A DNA stretch of 35,795 nucleotides from a virus, in UHGV virus genome UHGV-0238106, one strand, 5' to 3'. The first letter of the stretch is position 1; every line of letters starts with the position of its first letter. The notes under the pieces are model-generated. The model searched no databases. It was not told the origin of the DNA and was given only the letters and a program-made list of their open reading frames with translations. Below, in pieces: positions 2,913 through 35,164 of the stretch. The translations under genes and the position numbers were made by a program.

Positions 2913-3560
2913 TTACTTACAATGTTTGTATATTATTTCTGATATATGTGGTATATCAACGCCGAGGGATTGTGCTTCCATCAAAGACGAAACTTTTTGA
3001 ATGATCTGGTTTCTGAATAATATCATTTCTTTAGTCATATCTTCAACTTTAATCATCTTATCAATCCCAAATTTAATGCTAGTGGCTTTATTAGCAATTG
3101 TATTGGCTTTTATGTATTGCCTTGGTTTTATATCACTTATGCTATTTTTAAGCAATTTCATGCTGTTTTTAGTTATTTCCTTGCTTGTTTCTCGTATAGC
3201 TTTATATTCGGGTGTTTTTAATTCATCAAGAACCTTTTTAGCTTCATAAAATTGTCTAACGAGTAATTTTTTAAAGTCTCTTACTGATTGAGTATTTTTT
3301 AAGTAAGTCAACAATAAAGTGGCTTGTTGCTCATTGTATAAATATACATTTCTTGCCCTGCCCCTACCAAATTTGTCTATTTTATAGCTGTAATGCTTTA
3401 ATTTACCAAATTCTTCGAAATCTGACTTATATTTTTCTGTTATCTGTTGTACCGTACGATGTGCAATGCCTGCGTGAATGGATATAATTTCGCTATTAGT
3501 AAAAGCGTTTTTATTCTGTATAAACACCAGTTCATCATCGCCTTTTATTATTTTATTCAT
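2913..3560 (-). CDS. Rha-family phage regulatory protein
   Basis: FTNSEIIS...H..VQQI..KYKSDFEEFG...GRGR..VYLYNEQQATLLLTYLKNT..VRDFKKLLVRQF is a Rha-like pattern. GGAGG RBS. Confidence 0.82.
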   Translation of the reverse strand: MNKIIKGDDELVFIQNKNAFTNSEIISIHAGIAHRTVQQITEKYKSDFEEFGKLKHYSYKIDKFGRGRARNVYLYNEQQATLLLTYLKNTQSVRDFKKLLVRQFYEAKKVLDELKTPEYKAIRETSKEITKNSMKLLKNSISDIKPRQYIKANTIANKATSIKFGIDKMIKVEDMTKEMILFRNQIIQKVSSLMEAQSLGVDIPHISEIIYKHCK

Positions 3561-3685
3561 GTTACCTCCTGTATGTAACTACCTGATTTTAAAATAAGGG
3601 GAAACGGCTCAGGTAACCGCTTTTCATGTTGCAATCACTATCCCCCATCAATATAGATTATGCCATAATTCTAGGTGGTATTCAA
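3561..3685 (-). promoter_or_regulatory. Promoter and structured 5' leader of the Rha-like gene
   Basis: TTGAAT(3685-3680)-17-CATAAT(3662-3657). The leader has a GGGGA/TCCCC closing stem and an AAGCGGTT/AGCCGTTT hairpin. The TACCTGA element at that loop is complementary to downstream TCAGGTA. Confidence 0.6.
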
Positions 3686-3849
3686 ATTAATTATTTGATT
3701 TTTTGTTTTAACGTTATTATTTGTATTCGGATTTTGGATACTTACTATTTTATCTTTTACTACTTGTTTGTTTATTTAAATCTTTTTCTAATCTTTACTA
3801 TATTTCTTGTTGGTTTTATGATTTGCTTTTTGGTGGATATCAAGAAATA

Positions 3850-4343
3850 ATGCACCCCCTCATCGATTTTGGTTGAGGGGGCGTTTTTATCTTTTCAAAA
3901 CGTATGTGCTTCTCGGAGCCATATCGAAGTTTCTAACGCTGGATTTTATCCCATCAGTCTCAAACGGTCTAAGGTCGCTCGAAAAACCGCAATCACCACA
4001 ATATTCGACTGATGCCTTAGTGTTTCCACTAGCAACGGGGTGAACTGTTTCTTATGTAGTCCAAATCTTAATTTTATGTCTTGTGCTAAGACAAACCGCC
4101 AATTGGATCAGCCTCTAACGCTCGGTAAACCGCTGGTTAGGCGGCACGTTATTTTTTGCCTTGGTTGTCAGTCAACAAGTGTTGTTTTTACCTGGTTTGC
4201 GTTCAACAGGAAATAAACCGCAAAAAAATAGCGCTCATCGCAATCCACTCGATTTACGCTACCTCTTACGGTTTACCATATCCAATTGTCCGCATTTACT
4301 GAGGTGGATTGAACACAGTAAACCGTCTGAGTCTTTAAACTCT
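3850..4343 (-). ncRNA. Large structured non-coding RNA (~490 nt; possibly ROOL/GOLLD-class, family not established)
   Basis: GC-enriched region with no credible ORF, bounded by TTTACA-17-TATATT (4378-4350) and a CCCCCTCA/TGAGGGGG terminator (3853-3883). Contains many long-range complementary helices (see findings). Confidence 0.72.
3853..3890. terminator. Intrinsic terminator hairpin
   Basis: CCCCCTCA-TCGATTTTGGT-TGAGGGGG with T-rich flanks on both strands. Confidence 0.75.
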
Positions 4344-4473
4344 ATTTATAATATAACACAAATATTTTAATTTGTAAAGCACTTTTTAAAAAAAAATTAA
4401 AGTTTCTCATATGGAACTAAAATTAATCTATACAGACATTATTTTAGTAAAATTATCATAATCCCCCTAAAGA

Positions 4474-4722
4474 TTAAAAAATATATTTTTTATCTTTTAG
4501 CTCTTGTAATTCGCTATTATTATCCAATCCAACAATTTCAATTAATTCCTCTTCTGTTATTACTGGGTTTGATTTCAATATGCAAAACCTAGCAATCTTT
4601 TTAAATATTTCCTTTGATTTTCTACTGATACTTTCTTTTTCAAAAAACATAGGAGTTTTAAGCTGACCCCTATCATCAATTACAAACCCCATAATTTTTA
4701 ATTCATTTATTATATGGTTCAT
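4474..4722 (-). CDS. Hypothetical protein
   Basis: 82-aa ORF with an AAAGGTGG RBS. Confidence 0.6.
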   Translation of the reverse strand: MNHIINELKIMGFVIDDRGQLKTPMFFEKESISRKSKEIFKKIARFCILKSNPVITEEELIEIVGLDNNSELQELKDKKYIF

Positions 4723-4851: not shown

Positions 4852-6087
4852 ATGCCACAGTTGCCTGAGCCTATAAGTCGTAAAGACGCATTGCTTCATA
4901 ATATAGCAGATGGCACACCGAGCATTAAAGATTTAATCCCTATTAGCCGTGAAGAAACATTTCTTCATAACATAGCTGATGGGACACCAGATATAAACGA
5001 TTTAATCCCTATTAGCCGTGAAGAAGTATATTTGAAATATATAGCCGAAAACGGAAGCGGTGGCGGCGGTGCTGATGTTTCGGGCGTTACGGCTACCGCT
5101 GATGATGTAGACACAGGGAAAATATTTGTCGATTCTAGCGGTAAAGAAGTAACAGGAATAAGCACCGCTAAAGCTGATTTAAAAGAACTTAAAGAAAATA
5201 TCGAAGCGCTTAATGACGAATTAGAGCCAGTAATTTTAGGTGATGGAAGCGGTGGTGGTTTTCAATTATCAAATGTTATAGGGATGATTGATAGAACGGC
5301 AACAGAGATAACGCTTCCTAGTGGGCTGACGAAAATTGGGAATTATGCTTTTTATAATTATTCAACCTTACCTTCGATTGATATCCCTGAGAGTGTTACC
5401 AATATTGAAAATAGTGCTTTTAGAGAGTGCAACAAACTAGCTTTAACTTCTCTTCCTAGTGGTATAACTAGTATTGGGGAGGGCGCTTTTCAAAGTTGCA
5501 CGAACCTAGCCCTGACTTCTCTACCTGAGGTGCTTACAAGTATAGGAAGCGATGCTTTTAAAGAGTGCAGAAACTTAGCCTTAACTTCTTTACCCAGCGG
5601 TTTAACTAGTATTGGAAGTGGTGCTTTTCAATACTGTGAAAAACTAGCTTTAACCTCTTTACCGAGTGGCGTCACTAGTATTGGAGGCTATACTTTTGGA
5701 TATTGCAAAAACTTAGCCTTAACTTCTTTACCGAATGGAGTTACGACAATAGGGCGTTATGCTTTTGAATATTGCACCAACCTTGCTTTAACTTCTTTAC
5801 CCAGTAGTTTAACTAGCATTGCATACAGTACTTTTGACAGTTGCAAAAAACTAGCTATAACTTCAATTCCAAGTGGTATAACTAGTATTGAACCCAATGC
5901 TTTTTCTAGTTGCACAGGCCTAACCGAAATTACTTTCGAGGGCACACCTAAAACTTTAAATTCAACCGCTTTTGGCGGCTGCACCAACTTAACTACTATT
6001 CGTGTTCCGTGGAACGAAGGCGAAGTAGCTGGAGCTCCCTGGGGCGCTACTAATGCAACAATTGTCTACAACTACACATCACAATAA
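4852..6087 (+). CDS. BspA-type (LRR_5) leucine-rich repeat protein, possible receptor-binding or accessory protein
   Basis: About ten 23-aa repeats LPSGxTSIGxxAFxxCxNLALTS. N-terminal PISREExxLHNIADGTP repeats and a VTATADDVDTGKIFVDSSG motif resembling phage fibre N-termini. Confidence 0.85.
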   Translation: MPQLPEPISRKDALLHNIADGTPSIKDLIPISREETFLHNIADGTPDINDLIPISREEVYLKYIAENGSGGGGADVSGVTATADDVDTGKIFVDSSGKEVTGISTAKADLKELKENIEALNDELEPVILGDGSGGGFQLSNVIGMIDRTATEITLPSGLTKIGNYAFYNYSTLPSIDIPESVTNIENSAFRECNKLALTSLPSGITSIGEGAFQSCTNLALTSLPEVLTSIGSDAFKECRNLALTSLPSGLTSIGSGAFQYCEKLALTSLPSGVTSIGGYTFGYCKNLALTSLPNGVTTIGRYAFEYCTNLALTSLPSSLTSIAYSTFDSCKKLAITSIPSGITSIEPNAFSSCTGLTEITFEGTPKTLNSTAFGGCTNLTTIRVPWNEGEVAGAPWGATNATIVYNYTSQ

Positions 6088-6102
6088 AGGAGGTAAAATC
6101 AA

Positions 6103-7089
6103 ATGGCAACTAATACAATAAATGAAAATGTTGAACAAGCAATTCTTGATTTTGGAACTATTAAGCAAGCAATTATAGATAAAGGCGTTGAAGTTCCAGA
6201 CGGAACTCCTACAAGCCAATACGCTACTAAAATTGGCGAAATCCAAAGTGGTGGAAGCTCTAGTGATGATTTTAAAGGAATGGTTGAAAGAACGGCGACG
6301 GAGGTTGCTCTTCCGAGTGATTGCACTAAAATTGGAGATTATGCTTTTGCTATTTATATAAGTTTAACCTCTGTTGACATTCCTAAGAGTGTTACTAGTA
6401 TTGGAAGCTATGCTTTTCAACTCTGCAAAAACCTAGCTTTAACTTCTTTACCTGAGAGTGTTACTAGTATTAATGGCCATGCTTTTTCAGAGTGTACCAA
6501 ACTAGCTCTAACCTCTTTGCCTGAGGGGATTACTAGTATTGGAGAAAATGCTTTTTATGGCTGCACAAACCTAGCCTTAACCTATTTGCCTAGTGGGATT
6601 ACTAAAATTCTGGGTAGTACTTTTCATGGATGTTCAAACCTAGCCTTAACTTCTTTGCTTGAGAGTGTAACTTATATTGGATATAGTGCTTTTAGCAATT
6701 GCACAAACCTAGCCTTAACTTCTTTACCGAGTGGAGTTACGAAGATAGAAAATTATGTTTTTAACAATTGCGTCAACTTATCCTTAACATCTTTGCCTGA
6801 TGGTGTAACTTATATTGGAAACTATGCTTTTGCCAATTGCACCAACTTATCCTTAGCATCTTTGCCTGATGGTGTAACTAGTATTGAGGACTATGCTTTT
6901 AGAGGTTGCACAGGCCTAACCGAAATAACTTTCGAGGGTACACCTAACTCTATAGACTCAACCGCTTTTTCTGGTTGCACCAACCTAACAACCATCCGTG
7001 TTCCGTGGGCTGAGGGCGAAGTTTCAGGCGCACCCTGGGGAGCTTCGAACGCCAGCTTAATATATTCATACACCCCCGAAACCACATAA
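6103..7089 (+). CDS. BspA-type (LRR_5) leucine-rich repeat protein, paralogue of 4852..6087
   Basis: Same 23-aa repeats and the same C-cap (TTIRVPWxEGEVxGAPWGAxNA). N-terminus IKQAIIDKGVEVPDGTPTSQYATKI. AAAGGAGG RBS. Confidence 0.85.
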   Translation: MATNTINENVEQAILDFGTIKQAIIDKGVEVPDGTPTSQYATKIGEIQSGGSSSDDFKGMVERTATEVALPSDCTKIGDYAFAIYISLTSVDIPKSVTSIGSYAFQLCKNLALTSLPESVTSINGHAFSECTKLALTSLPEGITSIGENAFYGCTNLALTYLPSGITKILGSTFHGCSNLALTSLLESVTYIGYSAFSNCTNLALTSLPSGVTKIENYVFNNCVNLSLTSLPDGVTYIGNYAFANCTNLSLASLPDGVTSIEDYAFRGCTGLTEITFEGTPNSIDSTAFSGCTNLTTIRVPWAEGEVSGAPWGASNASLIYSYTPETT

Positions 7090-7640: not shown

Positions 7641-7699
7641 TTAAAAAAAATTAATTTTTTTAAAAAATAGTTGACAAATATAAAATAATATGTTATTAT
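7641..7699 (+). promoter_or_regulatory. Early sigma-A promoter with upstream A/T inverted repeat
   Basis: TTGACA(7671)-17-TATTAT(7694), preceded by a TTAAAAAAAATTAATTTTTTTAA near-palindrome. Confidence 0.7.
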
Positions 7700-7729
7700 A
7701 TAAACATGAGAGCAAAAGAGGTGAAATAA

Positions 7730-9631: not shown

Positions 9632-9892
9632 ATGGCTGTAATAGCAATTAGAGTTCCAGATAATGAATATAAATATGCAGAACAACTTGCAAATTTTAAA
9701 GGTGTTAAATTATCGACTTATTTTAGAAACTTATTAGCGGAACAAATAGAAGATTTTGAAGATGAACAAATTTTAAAAGAAATGGAAGAAGATATGATAA
9801 TTAATCCAGAAGAATATAGCGGCGGTAAACCATTTCAAGAATTTGTAAAGGAATTTGAAAGTGAAAAAATACACGGTAATAATAGAGCCTAA
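9632..9892 (+). CDS. Type II antitoxin, RelB/DUF6290-like (ribbon-helix-helix)
   Basis: MAVIAIRV..E....A...GVKLSTYFR..L.EQIEDFED, acidic tail; overlaps the toxin gene. Confidence 0.8.
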   Translation: MAVIAIRVPDNEYKYAEQLANFKGVKLSTYFRNLLAEQIEDFEDEQILKEMEEDMIINPEEYSGGKPFQEFVKEFESEKIHGNNRA

Positions 9893-10133
9893 AGCTCAGA
9901 AACAATTAAAAAAAATAGATCCCATTCAATCAAAAATGATTCAAAAATGGATCTTAAAAAACCTTGTAAATTGTTCCGAACCCTGTTTTCAAGGGAAAAT
10001 GCTTAAAGGTAACTTAAAAAACATCTGGAGATATAGAGTAGGCCAATATAGAATATTCGCTGAAATCGACAGAGAATATATTGTAATAAAAATAATTAAA
10101 ATAGGTCATAGGCAAAGCGTCTATAACGATTAA
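9861..10133 (+). CDS. relE: RelE/ParE-family toxin
   Basis: YTVIIEPKAQKQLKKID...P..QGKMLKGNL..IWRYRVGQYRIFAEI...IKIGHRQSVY. Probable GTG start at 9861. Confidence 0.88.
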   Translation: MKKYTVIIEPKAQKQLKKIDPIQSKMIQKWILKNLVNCSEPCFQGKMLKGNLKNIWRYRVGQYRIFAEIDREYIVIKIIKIGHRQSVYND

Positions 10134-13088: not shown

Positions 13089-13907
13089 TTAGCAGCCGCA
13101 ACCAGAGCATGAACTATATCCACAACAATATGGATTTTGAACAGTGTATGCAGGAACAGGGCATGGTCTTAATTGATTTACAAGGTAGTTGTTTTGCGCT
13201 TGCTGTGAAGCTGCTAACTGTAAAGCATTAATTTGATTTTGTTGTGCTGTGATTTGAGCGTTTTTATCTTCAATTCTATTTGATACGATTTCATCATGCA
13301 ATGCTCTGTAATTTGCGTTTTGACTGTCTATTACATCCCTAAAACCATTGCATAAAGTTTGATTGATTGAATTTGTCTGCATTGCTATGTTATAGTTTAC
13401 ATCTTTGATTGCTGATTGGGTTTTGCAGCAACAATCAGATAATTGACTTGAAACGCCATTAATAGCATTTCTGGTTTCATATCCGCTTGTATTTATAGCG
13501 GAATTTACTCCATTAAATCCTTGGCAAAGTGTTTGCTGTACACTAGCGGTTGTGCTAGCTATGTTGCTATTTACTCCATTAATCAACTGTGCTTGTGAAT
13601 AAAGTCCATCACACAGACCATTATTTATAGCATCACCTTTTCTTTCAAGAGAAGATATGCCACTGTCAATTTGCCTTTGCAATGTTGCAAAATCACTTGC
13701 TAAAACATAGTTGTCCATTGCTCCGCTTCCCGAAGTTCCTACACCTCCTCTGTTTCCAAATCCATTCCCCCAGCCACCAAAGACAAAGAAAAGAACGAAC
13801 ATAACGATCCACCAGGCCCCATTTTCGCCGCCAACTCCAGAGCCATTTCTGCTATTGCCTGTTAATGCAGCGATATCAGCAGGACTTAAGTTTTCACCCA
13901 TTGACAT
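13089..13907 (-). CDS. Hypothetical protein with hydrophobic/Gly-rich N-segment, long Asn/Gln coiled coil and Cys clusters (module gene 4)
   Basis: ATG at 13907 after AAGGAG. WWIVMFVLFFVFGGWGNGFG, DCCCKT, and C-terminal YCCGYSSCSGCGC. Confidence 0.8.
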   Translation of the reverse strand: MSMGENLSPADIAALTGNSRNGSGVGGENGAWWIVMFVLFFVFGGWGNGFGNRGGVGTSGSGAMDNYVLASDFATLQRQIDSGISSLERKGDAINNGLCDGLYSQAQLINGVNSNIASTTASVQQTLCQGFNGVNSAINTSGYETRNAINGVSSQLSDCCCKTQSAIKDVNYNIAMQTNSINQTLCNGFRDVIDSQNANYRALHDEIVSNRIEDKNAQITAQQNQINALQLAASQQAQNNYLVNQLRPCPVPAYTVQNPYCCGYSSCSGCGC

Positions 13908-13962
13908 TTCCAACACTCCTTTAAACTTTTTATATATATTTAAACACAAGATGTGTGTTTAG

Positions 13963-26032: not shown

Positions 26033-26352
26033 CAATTGTGTTATCGTAAGGGCTTTTTATCCCCTACTTCTGTATATTGCTATACAGTTCGGCTCATATC
26101 TTCACATATTATGTGTTGGGCACTCTTGAACTTATTATATTCTCTAAAAGAGTTTCAAAGTCTGAGCTCTGAACCTTCGCTAACCATTTAAATTAACGCT
26201 TGGCTGCTGATTATCCAATCATTTTGATTTTTAAACATTCACGCTTATCGTTTCCAATTACGTTGTAGTTCAAAATGCTCTAAGGTTTTTCCAGCAGTTC
26301 ACCCAATTTATACAGGACAGATCACTTAAGCAGCCATCAGCTCGTTTTGTTT
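26033..26352 (-). ncRNA. Group I self-splicing intron (320 nt, no homing endonuclease ORF)
   Basis: P1 ACAGGAU/GUCCUGU with U.G at the splice site. P element GAACUGCUGGAAA, Q element AAUCAGCAGC. P7 AGAGCUCA/UGAGCC after AAGAUA. Terminal G at 26033; P10 GUGAUC/GAUCGC. Removal fuses the exons in frame (386 aa). Confidence 0.92.
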
Positions 26353-32993: not shown

Positions 32994-33160
32994 TTTACAT
33001 TATAGGGGCGTTTTGGTATAATGAAGGTGTTGGAAGATAAAAAAGAATATTTTAATACATAGGTGTTTTGTATCTGGTTATTGTTGGGTATCTTCCAACA
33101 TTAACCCCCGACAATAGTCAGATACAAGGCACTTATTTTTGTGTGTAAAAGGAGAATCGC
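32994..33160 (+). promoter_or_regulatory. Promoter and structured leader (attenuator/pseudoknot) of the HNH-rep2 operon
   Basis: TTTACA(32994)-17-TATAAT(33017). A long G.U-containing stem at ~33060-33135 is followed by a U-tract. Its loop TATCTTCCAACA is complementary to 5' TGTTGGAAGATA. Confidence 0.72.
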
Positions 33161-33165
33161 TTGAA

Positions 33166-33924
33166 ATGATTGATATTGATTATATAAAATCAGTAATTAA
33201 TCCAAAATACGAAGATGAAAGAAAAATTGGTACAGAAGATATTATAAAGTCTGAAATAGTAGAAATTTTAAGAAATGGTTTGATAAGCCAAGTTCCAAAA
33301 TGCTTCAAATGCGTTGAAAATTCGGGACAAAAATTCAAAGTCCTCTCGACATGTAATAAATGCAAAAAGGAAGAAGTTTTATCCGAATTTAGCAAAACGA
33401 AGTTGTTACAATACTTGCACCCAAAGTATTATCAAGAAATCGAAAAAAATATATTATGCCCAAAATGTTATGAATTAAGAAAAGCTGAAGAAGAAGTTCT
33501 AAAAAAGCAACAGGAAGAAAAACATATAAAATTTGAAGAAAGAAGAAAAGAAATAATCGAAAGTAATACGAATTATTTTATTGAAAACTTTTTAGACCAT
33601 AACTGCTCATGGAATCAAGGAGTTACATTACAAGCCAAAGTTAAATATGTAATATATCGTGATTATTTAATTGATGATGAAGTTGTTTGTAAGGTTATAA
33701 ATAACATGACTTATAAAGAATTTTTAGAAACGCCATACTGGTCTGCAATTTCGTTATATGCCAAGTCAAGAGTTAAATTTAAATGCCAATTATGTAATTG
33801 TGGTGACGACTTAAATACTCACCATAAAACTTACGAAAGACACGGATATGAACATTTACCTGATGTTATAAAATCAGATCTGATAGTTTTATGCCAAGAT
33901 TGCCATAGCAAATTTCATGAATAA
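33166..33924 (+). CDS. Zinc-binding HNH endonuclease-like protein
   Basis: Several CxxC motifs; C-terminal YKEFLETPYW...CQLC...LNTHHKTY..HG.E......DLIVLCQDCHSKFH. Confidence 0.8.
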   Translation: MIDIDYIKSVINPKYEDERKIGTEDIIKSEIVEILRNGLISQVPKCFKCVENSGQKFKVLSTCNKCKKEEVLSEFSKTKLLQYLHPKYYQEIEKNILCPKCYELRKAEEEVLKKQQEEKHIKFEERRKEIIESNTNYFIENFLDHNCSWNQGVTLQAKVKYVIYRDYLIDDEVVCKVINNMTYKEFLETPYWSAISLYAKSRVKFKCQLCNCGDDLNTHHKTYERHGYEHLPDVIKSDLIVLCQDCHSKFHE

Positions 33925-33958
33925 TATTTTTCAAGATGATGTAACGGAGGAATAACAT

Positions 33959-34273
33959 ATGCAACAGAATTTTATTGAAAATGAGTTAGTTATACTTACT
34001 AAGCAAACTTTAGATATATTTTTGAAACAAGAAAACCCTGCAGAGCTTATATCCTTGTACACATTTTATTATTATACGGCTAAGTGCCAACAAACAAATC
34101 AAGTTAAATGCACAACGGATTATGTTGCAAAAGGTTTGCACTGGAATAGAAACAAAGTTATAAAAATAAAAAAACAACTCATTGAATTTGGTCTTATTGA
34201 AGATGCAAGAATTGTTGATGAAAACACGAAAAGAGTAACAGGTTACTATATAAATTTGATAAAGGAGAATTAA
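33959..34273 (+). CDS. Winged-HTH protein resembling an isolated initiator N-domain
   Basis: LISLYTFYYYTAK.QQTNQVKCT.DYVAKGLHW...KV.K.KKQLIEFGLIE; GGAGG RBS. Confidence 0.6.
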   Translation: MQQNFIENELVILTKQTLDIFLKQENPAELISLYTFYYYTAKCQQTNQVKCTTDYVAKGLHWNRNKVIKIKKQLIEFGLIEDARIVDENTKRVTGYYINLIKEN

Positions 34274-34276
34274 AAT

Positions 34277-35164
34277 ATGAAGTTTACAATAGAGGGATTT
34301 TCTCAAGAGGCTGCTTTGTCAATGCAAAAAGAAGTAAAAGTAAAAAATAGTAGAGGAAAAGAACAGACAAAAATTTTAATGTTAGACCAAACAGATTTGA
34401 CATTATTGAGATGGTTTGTAGATTTTTACCCTAAAATGAAGAAAAAAATAATAGGAGAAACTCAATATGCATGGGTAAATTATCAATCAATAATTAATGA
34501 TTTGCCACTTTTAAGAATTGAAAAAAGACCAGTTTATAACAGGTTTTCAAAAATGTGCGAATTGGGTATTTTGGTCCATTACCATGATAAGAGTGGTGGA
34601 TCTTACTCTTATTATGGTTTTGGTGAAAAATATAGTCTATTAATAGAAACTAACCCTATAAATTCAAATTCCGAGGGGTATGTATTCAAATACATAGGGG
34701 GTATGTATTCAAATTCCGAGGGGGTATGTATTCAAATTCCGACCAAAGACTCATCTATTAATAACTCATCTATTAATAACTATTGTAGTAAGAAAGAAAG
34801 CAAGAACGCCGAGTACTCAAACGAGCCAAAAAACAGTAGAAAGACATTCAACGAAATAATTGACGATTACACTGAAAATGAGGAATTAAGAAAAGTATTA
34901 AGAGAACACTTAAAAACCAGAAAATTAAAAAGATCCAGTTTAACCAATCAAGCTATAATTTTAGGTCTTAAAAAATTAGATACTTTAGCAAATACTGATG
35001 AAGAAAAAATTCTAATCGTGCAGAATTCAATTGTGAACGGTTGGACTGAATTCTTTGCGCTAAAAAAATCCGAAAACCGCTCAAAAAAATCGAAGCAAGA
35101 ACCCCAATCGTATTCGATCGAAGATTTTGCTTCGTACAACATATTTGATAGTATGGAAGAGTAG
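34277..35164 (+). CDS. Second phage replication initiator (Rep2)
   Basis: MKFTIEGFSQ...D.TDL.LLRWFVDF...YAWVNYQ....DLPLL winged-helix N-terminus, iteron-bearing linker, C-terminal L.EHLK.RK....LT..A....L.KL...IVQNSIVNGW..FF.LK. Confidence 0.8.
   Translation: MKFTIEGFSQEAALSMQKEVKVKNSRGKEQTKILMLDQTDLTLLRWFVDFYPKMKKKIIGETQYAWVNYQSIINDLPLLRIEKRPVYNRFSKMCELGILVHYHDKSGGSYSYYGFGEKYSLLIETNPINSNSEGYVFKYIGGMYSNSEGVCIQIPTKDSSINNSSINNYCSKKESKNAEYSNEPKNSRKTFNEIIDDYTENEELRKVLREHLKTRKLKRSSLTNQAIILGLKKLDTLANTDEEKILIVQNSIVNGWTEFFALKKSENRSKKSKQEPQSYSIEDFASYNIFDSMEE
34662..34780. repeat. Iteron-like repeats inside rep2 (putative origin)
   Basis: AGGGG(G)TATGTATTCAAAT(T/A)C x3 plus a partial copy (34662-34742); ACTCATCTATTAATA x2 (34749-34778). 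Confidence 0.78.

Follow-up and report, generated by a model that had tools for sequence, protein, structure and literature searches.

A predicted non-coding RNA of an SPP1-like siphophage with a hypervariable, likely two-fold 5' domain and three loop-pair alleles

We analysed a phage DNA of 35,795 nucleotides (the window) and found on its minus strand a stretch that likely encodes a non-coding RNA, whose 5' 125 bases are predicted to act as a switch with two folds. The sequence and its complementarity, the three alleles of one loop-loop pairing and the concentration of change in the 5' domain are direct observations, and the element is confirmed as real and as belonging to an SPP1-like siphophage, its transcription being predicted from sequence. 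The analysis supports a strand-specific, structured, non-coding element outside Rfam, with two mutually exclusive folds and compensatory change among relatives. By analogy with P4 CI, P1 c4 or IsrK, the RNA might be a self-recognition (immunity or incompatibility) switch; this is the explanation we prefer, tentatively and with somewhat less than even confidence. The features are collected in Table 1.

Table 1. Features of the predicted RNA and of the adjoining genes (window coordinates).
Feature	Position	Strand	Evidence or remark
82-aa orphan gene	4722-4474	minus	upstream neighbour of the ~490-nt RNA
Predicted sigma-A promoter (-35 TTTACA, TG, -10 TATATT, upstream A/T tract)	4350-4378	minus	10/12
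Predicted long RNA form, ~490 nt, non-coding	3850-4345	minus	folding z -4.7
Predicted short form, ~125 nt, hypervariable switch domain	4222-4345	minus	z -7.2; 23/32 variable columns
State A 19-bp rod, hides part of loop 1	4326-4308 / 4286-4268	minus	-22.8 kcal/mol
State B hairpin H1, displays loop 1 (4311-4304)	4323-4294	minus	8 invariant pairs
State B long hairpin H2, displays loop 2 (4249-4241)	4277-4212	minus	folding, alignment
Attenuator-like hairpin (top part of H2), then U7	4261-4229, to 4222	minus	overlooked in the sequence-only reading
Loop 1-loop 2 pairing, 8 bp, three alleles	4311-4304 / 4249-4241	minus	compensatory changes
P1, long-range 5'-3' helix, 13 bp	4331-4319 / 3971-3959	minus	13/13 pairs in all five relatives
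Possible pseudoknot	4014-4007 / 3959-3952	minus	one C-G to U.G change only
CGGUUU boxes, n=5	starts 4325, 4220, 4132, 4098, 3989	minus	acceptors near 4276-4268 and 3971-3964
End hairpin, 10 bp	3853-3883	either	weak U run on minus, good U run on plus
Rha predicted promoter and leader	promoter 3685-3657, region to 2913	minus	promoter scan
Rha-family gene	2913-3560	minus	PF09669, E 5e-11; possible read-through target downstream

The window comprises most or all of the phage (31% G+C). PHROGs and Pfam searches on its ORFs recovered terminase, portal, capsid, tape measure, holin, a GH25 endolysin and RecT, together with two replication-initiation gene sets and a ParE-type pair; neither an integrase nor a classical repressor turned up in the ORFs scanned (PHROGs, 51; Pfam, 28 and 18), the repressor scan covering part of the 97 ORFs of at least 60 aa. 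A plasmid-like state is hinted at, because the ParE-type pair is present and no integrase was found. The RNA lies between the 82-aa gene and the Rha-family gene, all three on the minus strand, and a replication initiator gene also follows downstream on that strand. The protein clusters of Rha and of the 82-aa protein have 46 and 52 members, respectively. Neighbour-protein scans of viral contigs yielded no relatives of the 82-aa protein, Rha or RecT, and the scan of species genome contigs no capsid relatives. The replication-initiation sets occupy 1060-2061 and 33139-35164, and initiator genes have been swapped among relatives (L011, L015) beside a conserved 27-bp inverted repeat at 2060-2141. 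The ParE-type toxin is paired with a DUF6290 gene at 9632-10133 (plus strand), and two tandem BspA-type leucine-rich-repeat genes, whose repeat content varies among relatives, lie at 4852-7089 (plus strand).

A sequence-only reading of the region had proposed a large, independently transcribed RNA between a promoter and a terminator, and every motif that it named was found in place. The promoter TTTACA-17-TATATT (4378-4350) is present, its score including the TG, and a transcription start is expected near 4345-4343. Since the window has 19 such sites (14.8+/-4.3 in shuffles), which is chance level, the consensus alone is weak support; better support seems to come from similar stretches that precede two protein-coding genes (2182-2239, 83% over 58 nt; 7655-7704, 74% over 50 nt). 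The promoter is unchanged in the five relatives, whose flanks are near-identical anyway. As for the proposed terminator, the hairpin exists, its stem invariant and its loop changed twice among relatives, but the terminator scan did not call it and its U run is better on the plus strand, so that the 3' end of the RNA is uncertain. Given that U run, something may be transcribed from the plus strand at 3626-3850. On the opposite strand, the promoter scan found nothing that could drive a classical antisense RNA.

Folding of the 501 nt from 4345 (4345-3845, minus strand) gave -150 kcal/mol, a value reached in 0/100 shuffles, in line with the earlier expectation of a fold better than shuffled controls. 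The z score was -3.4 without the end hairpin and only -0.6 for the plus strand, and the structure is therefore strand-specific. The enrichment in G+C that had been noted is real as well (42.5% in the RNA vs 30.9% in the window; 16-31% in other spacers and 36% in the capsid intron). Of the large structured RNA, the first 125 nt stood up to scrutiny, by fold and by double-sided changes; the 126-nt prefix accounts for the z of the short form, and its minimum free energy structure coincides with the centroid. The 3' body alone (3945-4211) did not, folding no better than chance (z -0.6). All of the folding signal and every double-sided change are thus confined to the 5' 125 nt, as would be expected if these were the whole functional small RNA and the rest a GC-rich, functionless remnant, an explanation that we regard as quite improbable: P1 is among the strongest helices and is kept in all copies, three of the CGGUUU boxes fall in the body, and a G+C of 42% exceeds the 16-31% of the other spacers.

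Two folds compete for the 5' domain. The rod is the strongest helix of the RNA, is predicted to form first and excludes P1, H1 and the loop-loop contact; the alternative pairing of the 5' strand, suggested earlier as a conformational switch, is part of this rod. In ensemble folding the rod had a probability of 1.00 in 5/5 short forms, and P1 and H2 reached at least 0.99 in 5/5 long forms, in which loop 1 was unpaired for 0-66% under nested folding (kissing lying outside the model). Among relatives the rod keeps 19/19 pairs in L008 (with four changes), 18 in L015 and 17 in L011; 92/95 cells are paired, with one double-sided and four single-sided pairs, which is not above the shuffle control (178/500). 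H1 extends to 10 bp in L008, L011 and L015. The attenuator-like hairpin has a modest core (-10.6 kcal/mol), and its U run lengthens to U8 in other copies. The claimed 13-bp long-range helix is present as P1, with one G.U to A-U change among relatives; a helix of such strength occurred in 7/150 shuffles, and the RNA holds two.

Other helices of the sequence-only reading fared less well. The geometry of its pseudoknot holds, but G3959 is shared with P1 and 4175-4168 is a rival partner, and helices of this strength are common in shuffles (9 real; shuffle mean 3.1, maximum 12). The listed helices cannot all coexist, because CAAUCCAC/GUGGAUUG crosses both CAAUUGGAU/AUCCAAUUG and GGUAAACCG/CGGUUUACC, and 3/9 pairs of CAAUUGGAU/AUCCAAUUG are broken in some relatives with no compensatory change. 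Five of the eight minus-strand copies of CGGUUU in the window lie inside the RNA (five of any hexamer in 5/2000 shuffles). Two-part complements flank the segment 4288-4268, one upstream (4326-4308) and one downstream (4133-4123 and 4108-4100); the downstream one has no double-sided change, loses pairs in some relatives and has a predicted probability of 0.00. In all five sequences the loop 1 region has a further potential partner, the G/U-rich segment 4001-3984 (minus strand), and this pairing might be a third fold that would extend P1.

In hok-type mRNAs, an early metastable hairpin is followed by 5'-3' closure, and the predicted layout of this RNA is the same. It could be a tightly folded mRNA for a tiny peptide, for which 5/5 sequences keep two short frames open, one of 16 aa that starts with UUG and has GAGG 9 nt ahead of it and one of 17 aa that starts with GUG, or the antitoxin RNA of the T-rich, hydrophobic plus-strand ORF at 3626-3850, which converges on the shared end hairpin and terminates there. 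Type I toxin-antitoxin function is nevertheless the least probable of the explanations weighed here. The earlier view that the RNA has no credible ORF was borne out: the sole internal ORF of at least 60 aa, which starts with TTG and has 69 aa, lies on the plus strand and has no Pfam match, and no internal ORF of at least 18 aa is intact in all five sequences. The ORF at 3626-3850 is frameshifted in 3/6 copies, has no Pfam match, is absent as an exact sequence from the protein collection and overlaps the RNA at the hairpin only; two substitutions in it are synonymous in the final frame. Small-peptide and type I toxin readings were rejected, with ORFs broken among relatives and no intact hydrophobic ORF with an overlapping antisense RNA found.

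The metagenome scan returned 11 loci, of which five are true copies (L008, L009, L011, L014 and L015) and six match the pattern only. Alignment A2 leaves out L009, which is identical there to L014, and the comparison rests on five distinct, near-identical sequences with three alleles. Of 504 columns, 32 are variable: 23 fall in columns 1-119, four in the next 328, which form the 3' body, and five in the 3' linker and terminator loop. Compared with the window, L008, L011 and L015 have an identity of 86.6-89.1% in the 5' domain (first ~120 nt) and L014 one of 100%; at the same loci the identity is 97.5-99.3% for the 3' body, for Rha and for the 82-aa gene. From these identities, the 5' domain is hypervariable and the 3' body has no conservation beyond kinship; purifying selection on the body was not detectable, its conservation being no higher than that of the flanks, and none of its four variable columns is double-sided. 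Covariation among relatives, which the sequence-only reading had named as a check, is present as compensatory change in the 5' domain (n=5 sequences). At L008 a 373-aa ORF, which by its start resembles an IS605-type TnpB, lies between Rha and the promoter copy (565-1686 of the reverse-complemented locus).

The fast, compensated, allele-forming change is confined to one pairing, that of loop 1 with loop 2, which reads CAAUCCAC/GUGGAUUG in the window, CCGUUGCU/AGCAACGG in L011 and L015 and CCAUCACU/AGUGAUGG in L008. Four pairs changed on both sides and one base was lost on both sides (a paired indel), giving eight double-changed cells vs 3.2+/-1.2 in shuffles (reached in 0/500), a control that kinship can inflate. 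In the state B model 390/392 cells are paired, although the pair count alone is not significant (132/500 shuffles). The second allele was met again in independent run contigs, X15 and X18 showing both of its loops and X19/X20, which are from one sample, its loop 2; the third comes from a single contig. The matched duplexes have predicted energies of -11.5, -12.4 and -13.5 kcal/mol and the six mismatched ones -1.2 to -8.8 kcal/mol, so that the alleles appear largely orthogonal. Because each half lies in a predicted hairpin loop (H1 and H2), the pair would be a kissing pair. An invariant segment at 4038-4031 (minus strand) has the same 8 nt as loop 1 of L011 and L015, and loop 2 of these two can therefore pair with either; for the other alleles the pairing with 4038-4031 is weaker.

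Diversification at ten times the rate of the flanks would be unexpected in a purely structural pair, and a pair that holds a fold would gain nothing by differing from that of a relative, whereas a recognition pair would. This is why we lean towards self-recognition, although the loop changes cannot by themselves separate pairing within one molecule from pairing between two. In the mechanism that we propose, the nascent RNA would first form the 19-bp rod and the terminator-like hairpin with its U7-8, so that a short form could be released in which loop 2 is accessible and loop 1 hidden; upon read-through, the CGGUUU boxes would exchange partners between the two acceptors, P1 would then close the long molecule, and loop 1 could meet loop 2. 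The RNA of a resident phage would pair intermolecularly with the newly made RNA of a phage of the same allele and so influence how that RNA folds and terminates, or what becomes of the long form. Control would be exerted on the Rha and replication genes downstream, or on the task of the 370-nt body, and the outcome would be immunity or incompatibility toward phages of the same allele. This proposal is favoured by the position of the RNA upstream of, and on the same strand as, the Rha-family gene and the replication initiator, by two exclusive folds that depend on transcript length (short vs long form), and by the presence of a ParE-type pair in a phage whose scanned ORFs include neither an integrase nor a classical repressor. 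It is weakened by a downstream complement that does not covary, by a loop 1 that is mostly paired in the long form under nested folding, by P1 closing the RNA like a self-contained molecule, and by Rha having its own predicted promoter and a leader that is kept in G001, a complete relative lacking the RNA. The modest core of the attenuator-like hairpin, the failure to find an antisense promoter and the small set of sequences (five, with three alleles) also speak against it. We consider rather unlikely a more specific version, in which selection has made the 8-base loop pair an interchangeable RNA key with orthogonal alleles, the short isoform would gate a 490-nt RNA machine in a phage with no detected integrase or repressor, and a shared 12-mer would possibly couple it to replication.

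G001 is a 35,810-bp record rated complete, with a capsid protein 98% identical to that of the window. BLAST, nhmmer and the 5'-domain model all gave no match to the RNA in it, and it retains a homologue of the 82-aa gene. Although it lacks the RNA, its Rha leader is 80% identical; the RNA is therefore accessory, and Rha is independent of the promoter of the RNA. In G001 this leader precedes a truncated copy of Rha. In the window the leader (3581-3685, minus strand) carries a 13-bp palindrome across the predicted -10 as well as a hairpin, and has a weak match to int-alpA (E 0.21).

Structures of ROOL, GOLLD and similar large phage RNAs have been solved, and their job is unassigned. Possible too, and ranked close behind the self-recognition switch, is that the present RNA is a stand-alone ornate RNA like these, a single transcript of 450-490 nt in which the loop pair would be a tertiary contact in the chain or a bridge in a homo-oligomer, and the rod just an intermediate in folding, by which the 5' strand is kept in place before P1 forms. 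P1 joins the 5' and 3' ends, promoter and end hairpin bracket the RNA, the single-sided changes are compatible with P1, the pseudoknot and a 6-bp helix 4036/3974, and the five repeated boxes could give multivalent contacts. ROOL has a covarying intermolecular kissing loop, and ROOL itself is non-essential (PMC12286853), which would fit the absence of the present RNA from G001. On the other hand, the pile-up of change in one loop pair is left unexplained, and the 3' body neither folds better than chance nor has double-sided change nor is conserved more than the flanking genes.

The sequence-only reading had taken the RNA for a divergent member of the ROOL or GOLLD class or for a new class. Rfam was scanned at gathering score on the whole window and down to E=10 on 3700-4500, and the RNA region gave nothing at gathering level and nine weak, unrelated rows to E=10. 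ROOL and GOLLD had no covariance-model match down to E=10, and hence the RNA is neither by this test; nor does it, although phage-borne, have the tRNA neighbours that these RNAs frequently have in phages and prophages (0 tRNA genes in the window by ARAGORN). Rfam and ARAGORN agree with the earlier statement that it is not a tmRNA, RNase P RNA or group I or II intron (the only such row is alpha-tmRNA, 7.9 bits, E 3.4). As a positive control, the E=10 mode found the group I intron of the window (E 7e-10). The models of c4 and CI were likewise not among the nine rows, and those of ARRPOF and GEBRO had no match to E=10 on 3700-4500. By the available tests, the RNA thus appears to lie outside ROOL, GOLLD, c4/CI, ARRPOF, GEBRO, tmRNA, RNase P and self-splicing introns. 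As described in PMC12286853 and PMC5737381, ROOL and GOLLD resemble it in being large, phage-borne and apparently dispensable, with a long-range helix, a possible pseudoknot and a covarying kissing loop. ROOL, with a mean of 581 nt, six multistem junctions along with three pseudoknots according to PMC5737381, compares with ~490 nt, one covarying loop-loop pair, one possible pseudoknot and few variants here. Unlike ROOL and GOLLD, the RNA has no model match or nearby tRNAs, is confined to one lineage and has its support limited to the 5' domain.

RNA-based phage immunity is, to our knowledge, known only from enterobacterial phages. Should the RNA act in trans, such immunity would extend to a phage of Firmicute type, in another architecture, and its alleles would be orthogonal RNA switches supplied by nature; should it be an ornate RNA, they could probe whether kissing loops enforce self-only assembly. 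Alleles in otherwise near-identical phages are a handle that ROOL and GOLLD lack, and because they are natural and largely orthogonal, matched and mismatched pairs are directly testable. According to PMC4825925, P4 CI RNA pairs both upstream and downstream (seqA, seqC) and causes premature termination, a layout that 4288-4268 with its two-sided complements resembles; P1 and P7 owe their heteroimmunity to minor differences between their ImmI sequences (PMC6906374). P4 CI and P1/P7 c4 are phage leader RNAs upstream of anti-repressor or replication genes, with same-strand complements on both sides. The present RNA differs in having no Rfam match and a Firmicute-type host phage, in a covarying pair that is loop against loop within 70 nt while the downstream site does not covary, in a downstream gene with its own predicted promoter beyond an intervening end hairpin, and in the 370-nt body closed by P1 that follows. 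IsrK of Gifsy-1 has a terminator-ended short form and a read-through form with alternative structures, and the former works in trans on the latter, upstream of an anti-repressor (PMC4825925). Here too the RNA lies upstream of a Rha-family gene, its two isoforms and their trans action being predicted only, but the read-through part has no credible orf45-like ORF, and there is no sequence likeness to IsrK. On the best reading the RNA might thus work as same-strand immunity RNAs do, with a different architecture, an analogy that we draw with about the same reserve as the switch itself.

ColE1 RNA II and RNA I are plasmid replication RNAs. The element could also control replication of a plasmid-like phage, as a primer precursor like ColE1 RNA II, an ARRPOF- or GEBRO-like RNA or a single-stranded DNA structure; we judge this improbable. 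The replication initiator gene holds, at 1505-1540, three tandem copies of the 12 nt found at 4273-4284 (a 12-mer is shared with any local repeat in 9/3000 shuffles, a post hoc test), and the lack of an integrase among the scanned ORFs fits as well. However, L011 holds the 12-mer with no copy in its different initiator gene, the repeat also encodes a Gly-Tyr-Gly-Asn peptide repeat, and G001 is devoid of the element. ARRPOF and GEBRO are motifs of 223-349 nt tied to plasmid replication (PMC5737381), and IncL/M uses a counter-transcript and a pseudoknot (PMC5880898). These RNAs and those of ColE1 likewise owe their specificity to loops that vary and lie close to the 5' end of a long leader. The present RNA differs from them in that no opposite-strand promoter was found, the plus strand folds poorly, and there is neither an adjacent rep gene nor an Rfam match.

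As far as the searches reach, the RNA is known from one phage lineage. Pattern scans for distant homologues gave 5, 3 and 27 loci in viral contigs and 0 and 28 in species genome contigs, none of them homologous. INPHARED gave eight matches and PLSDB three, all of ~30 nt or less; those in PLSDB (27-31 nt, three records) are at chance level, with no true plasmid match. Among genomes of the order of G005, 3/239 had matches of 31-34 nt, and four capsid-related phage loci had matches of 15-24 nt among the 50 searched of 56 (G001-G004, L151 and L154 were left out). The 5'-domain model R1 had hits in 0/38 records and found solely the six known copies in 17 sources; its reach is short because it was built from five near-identical sequences. 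Literature searches gave no published description of the RNA. Three short motifs did not occur in those supplements of PMC10690425 and PMC8040213 that could be searched, and these large candidate catalogues, like that of preprint 10.64898/2026.10.21.760802, may contain part of the RNA. Runs of 12 studies, labelled wastewater, manure or pig, contain near-identical DNA; two runs marked as possible RNA are from one sample, have short contigs and are probably DNA.

A group I identity of the RNA was rejected, with no RF00028 match at 3700-4500 and no split gene there, as were a group I origin, whose alignment to the phage's own intron was at chance (85/300 shuffles), and an antisense action on the capsid intron, whose score was equalled by 153/866 genome windows. 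That intron, 320 nt long, lies within the major capsid gene (26033-26352, minus strand). Its RF00028 match (44.7 bits, E 7e-10) is below gathering score and was missed by the whole-window scan. With the intron taken out, the frame is open and, at the junction, agrees with capsid proteins of the same cluster that have 386 aa and no intron. In G001 (L031 10772-13206), the gene matching window positions 13089-13949 is in pieces with inserts, one of which has 42 nt in common with the capsid intron at 90%; by sequence, these inserts are probably further introns.
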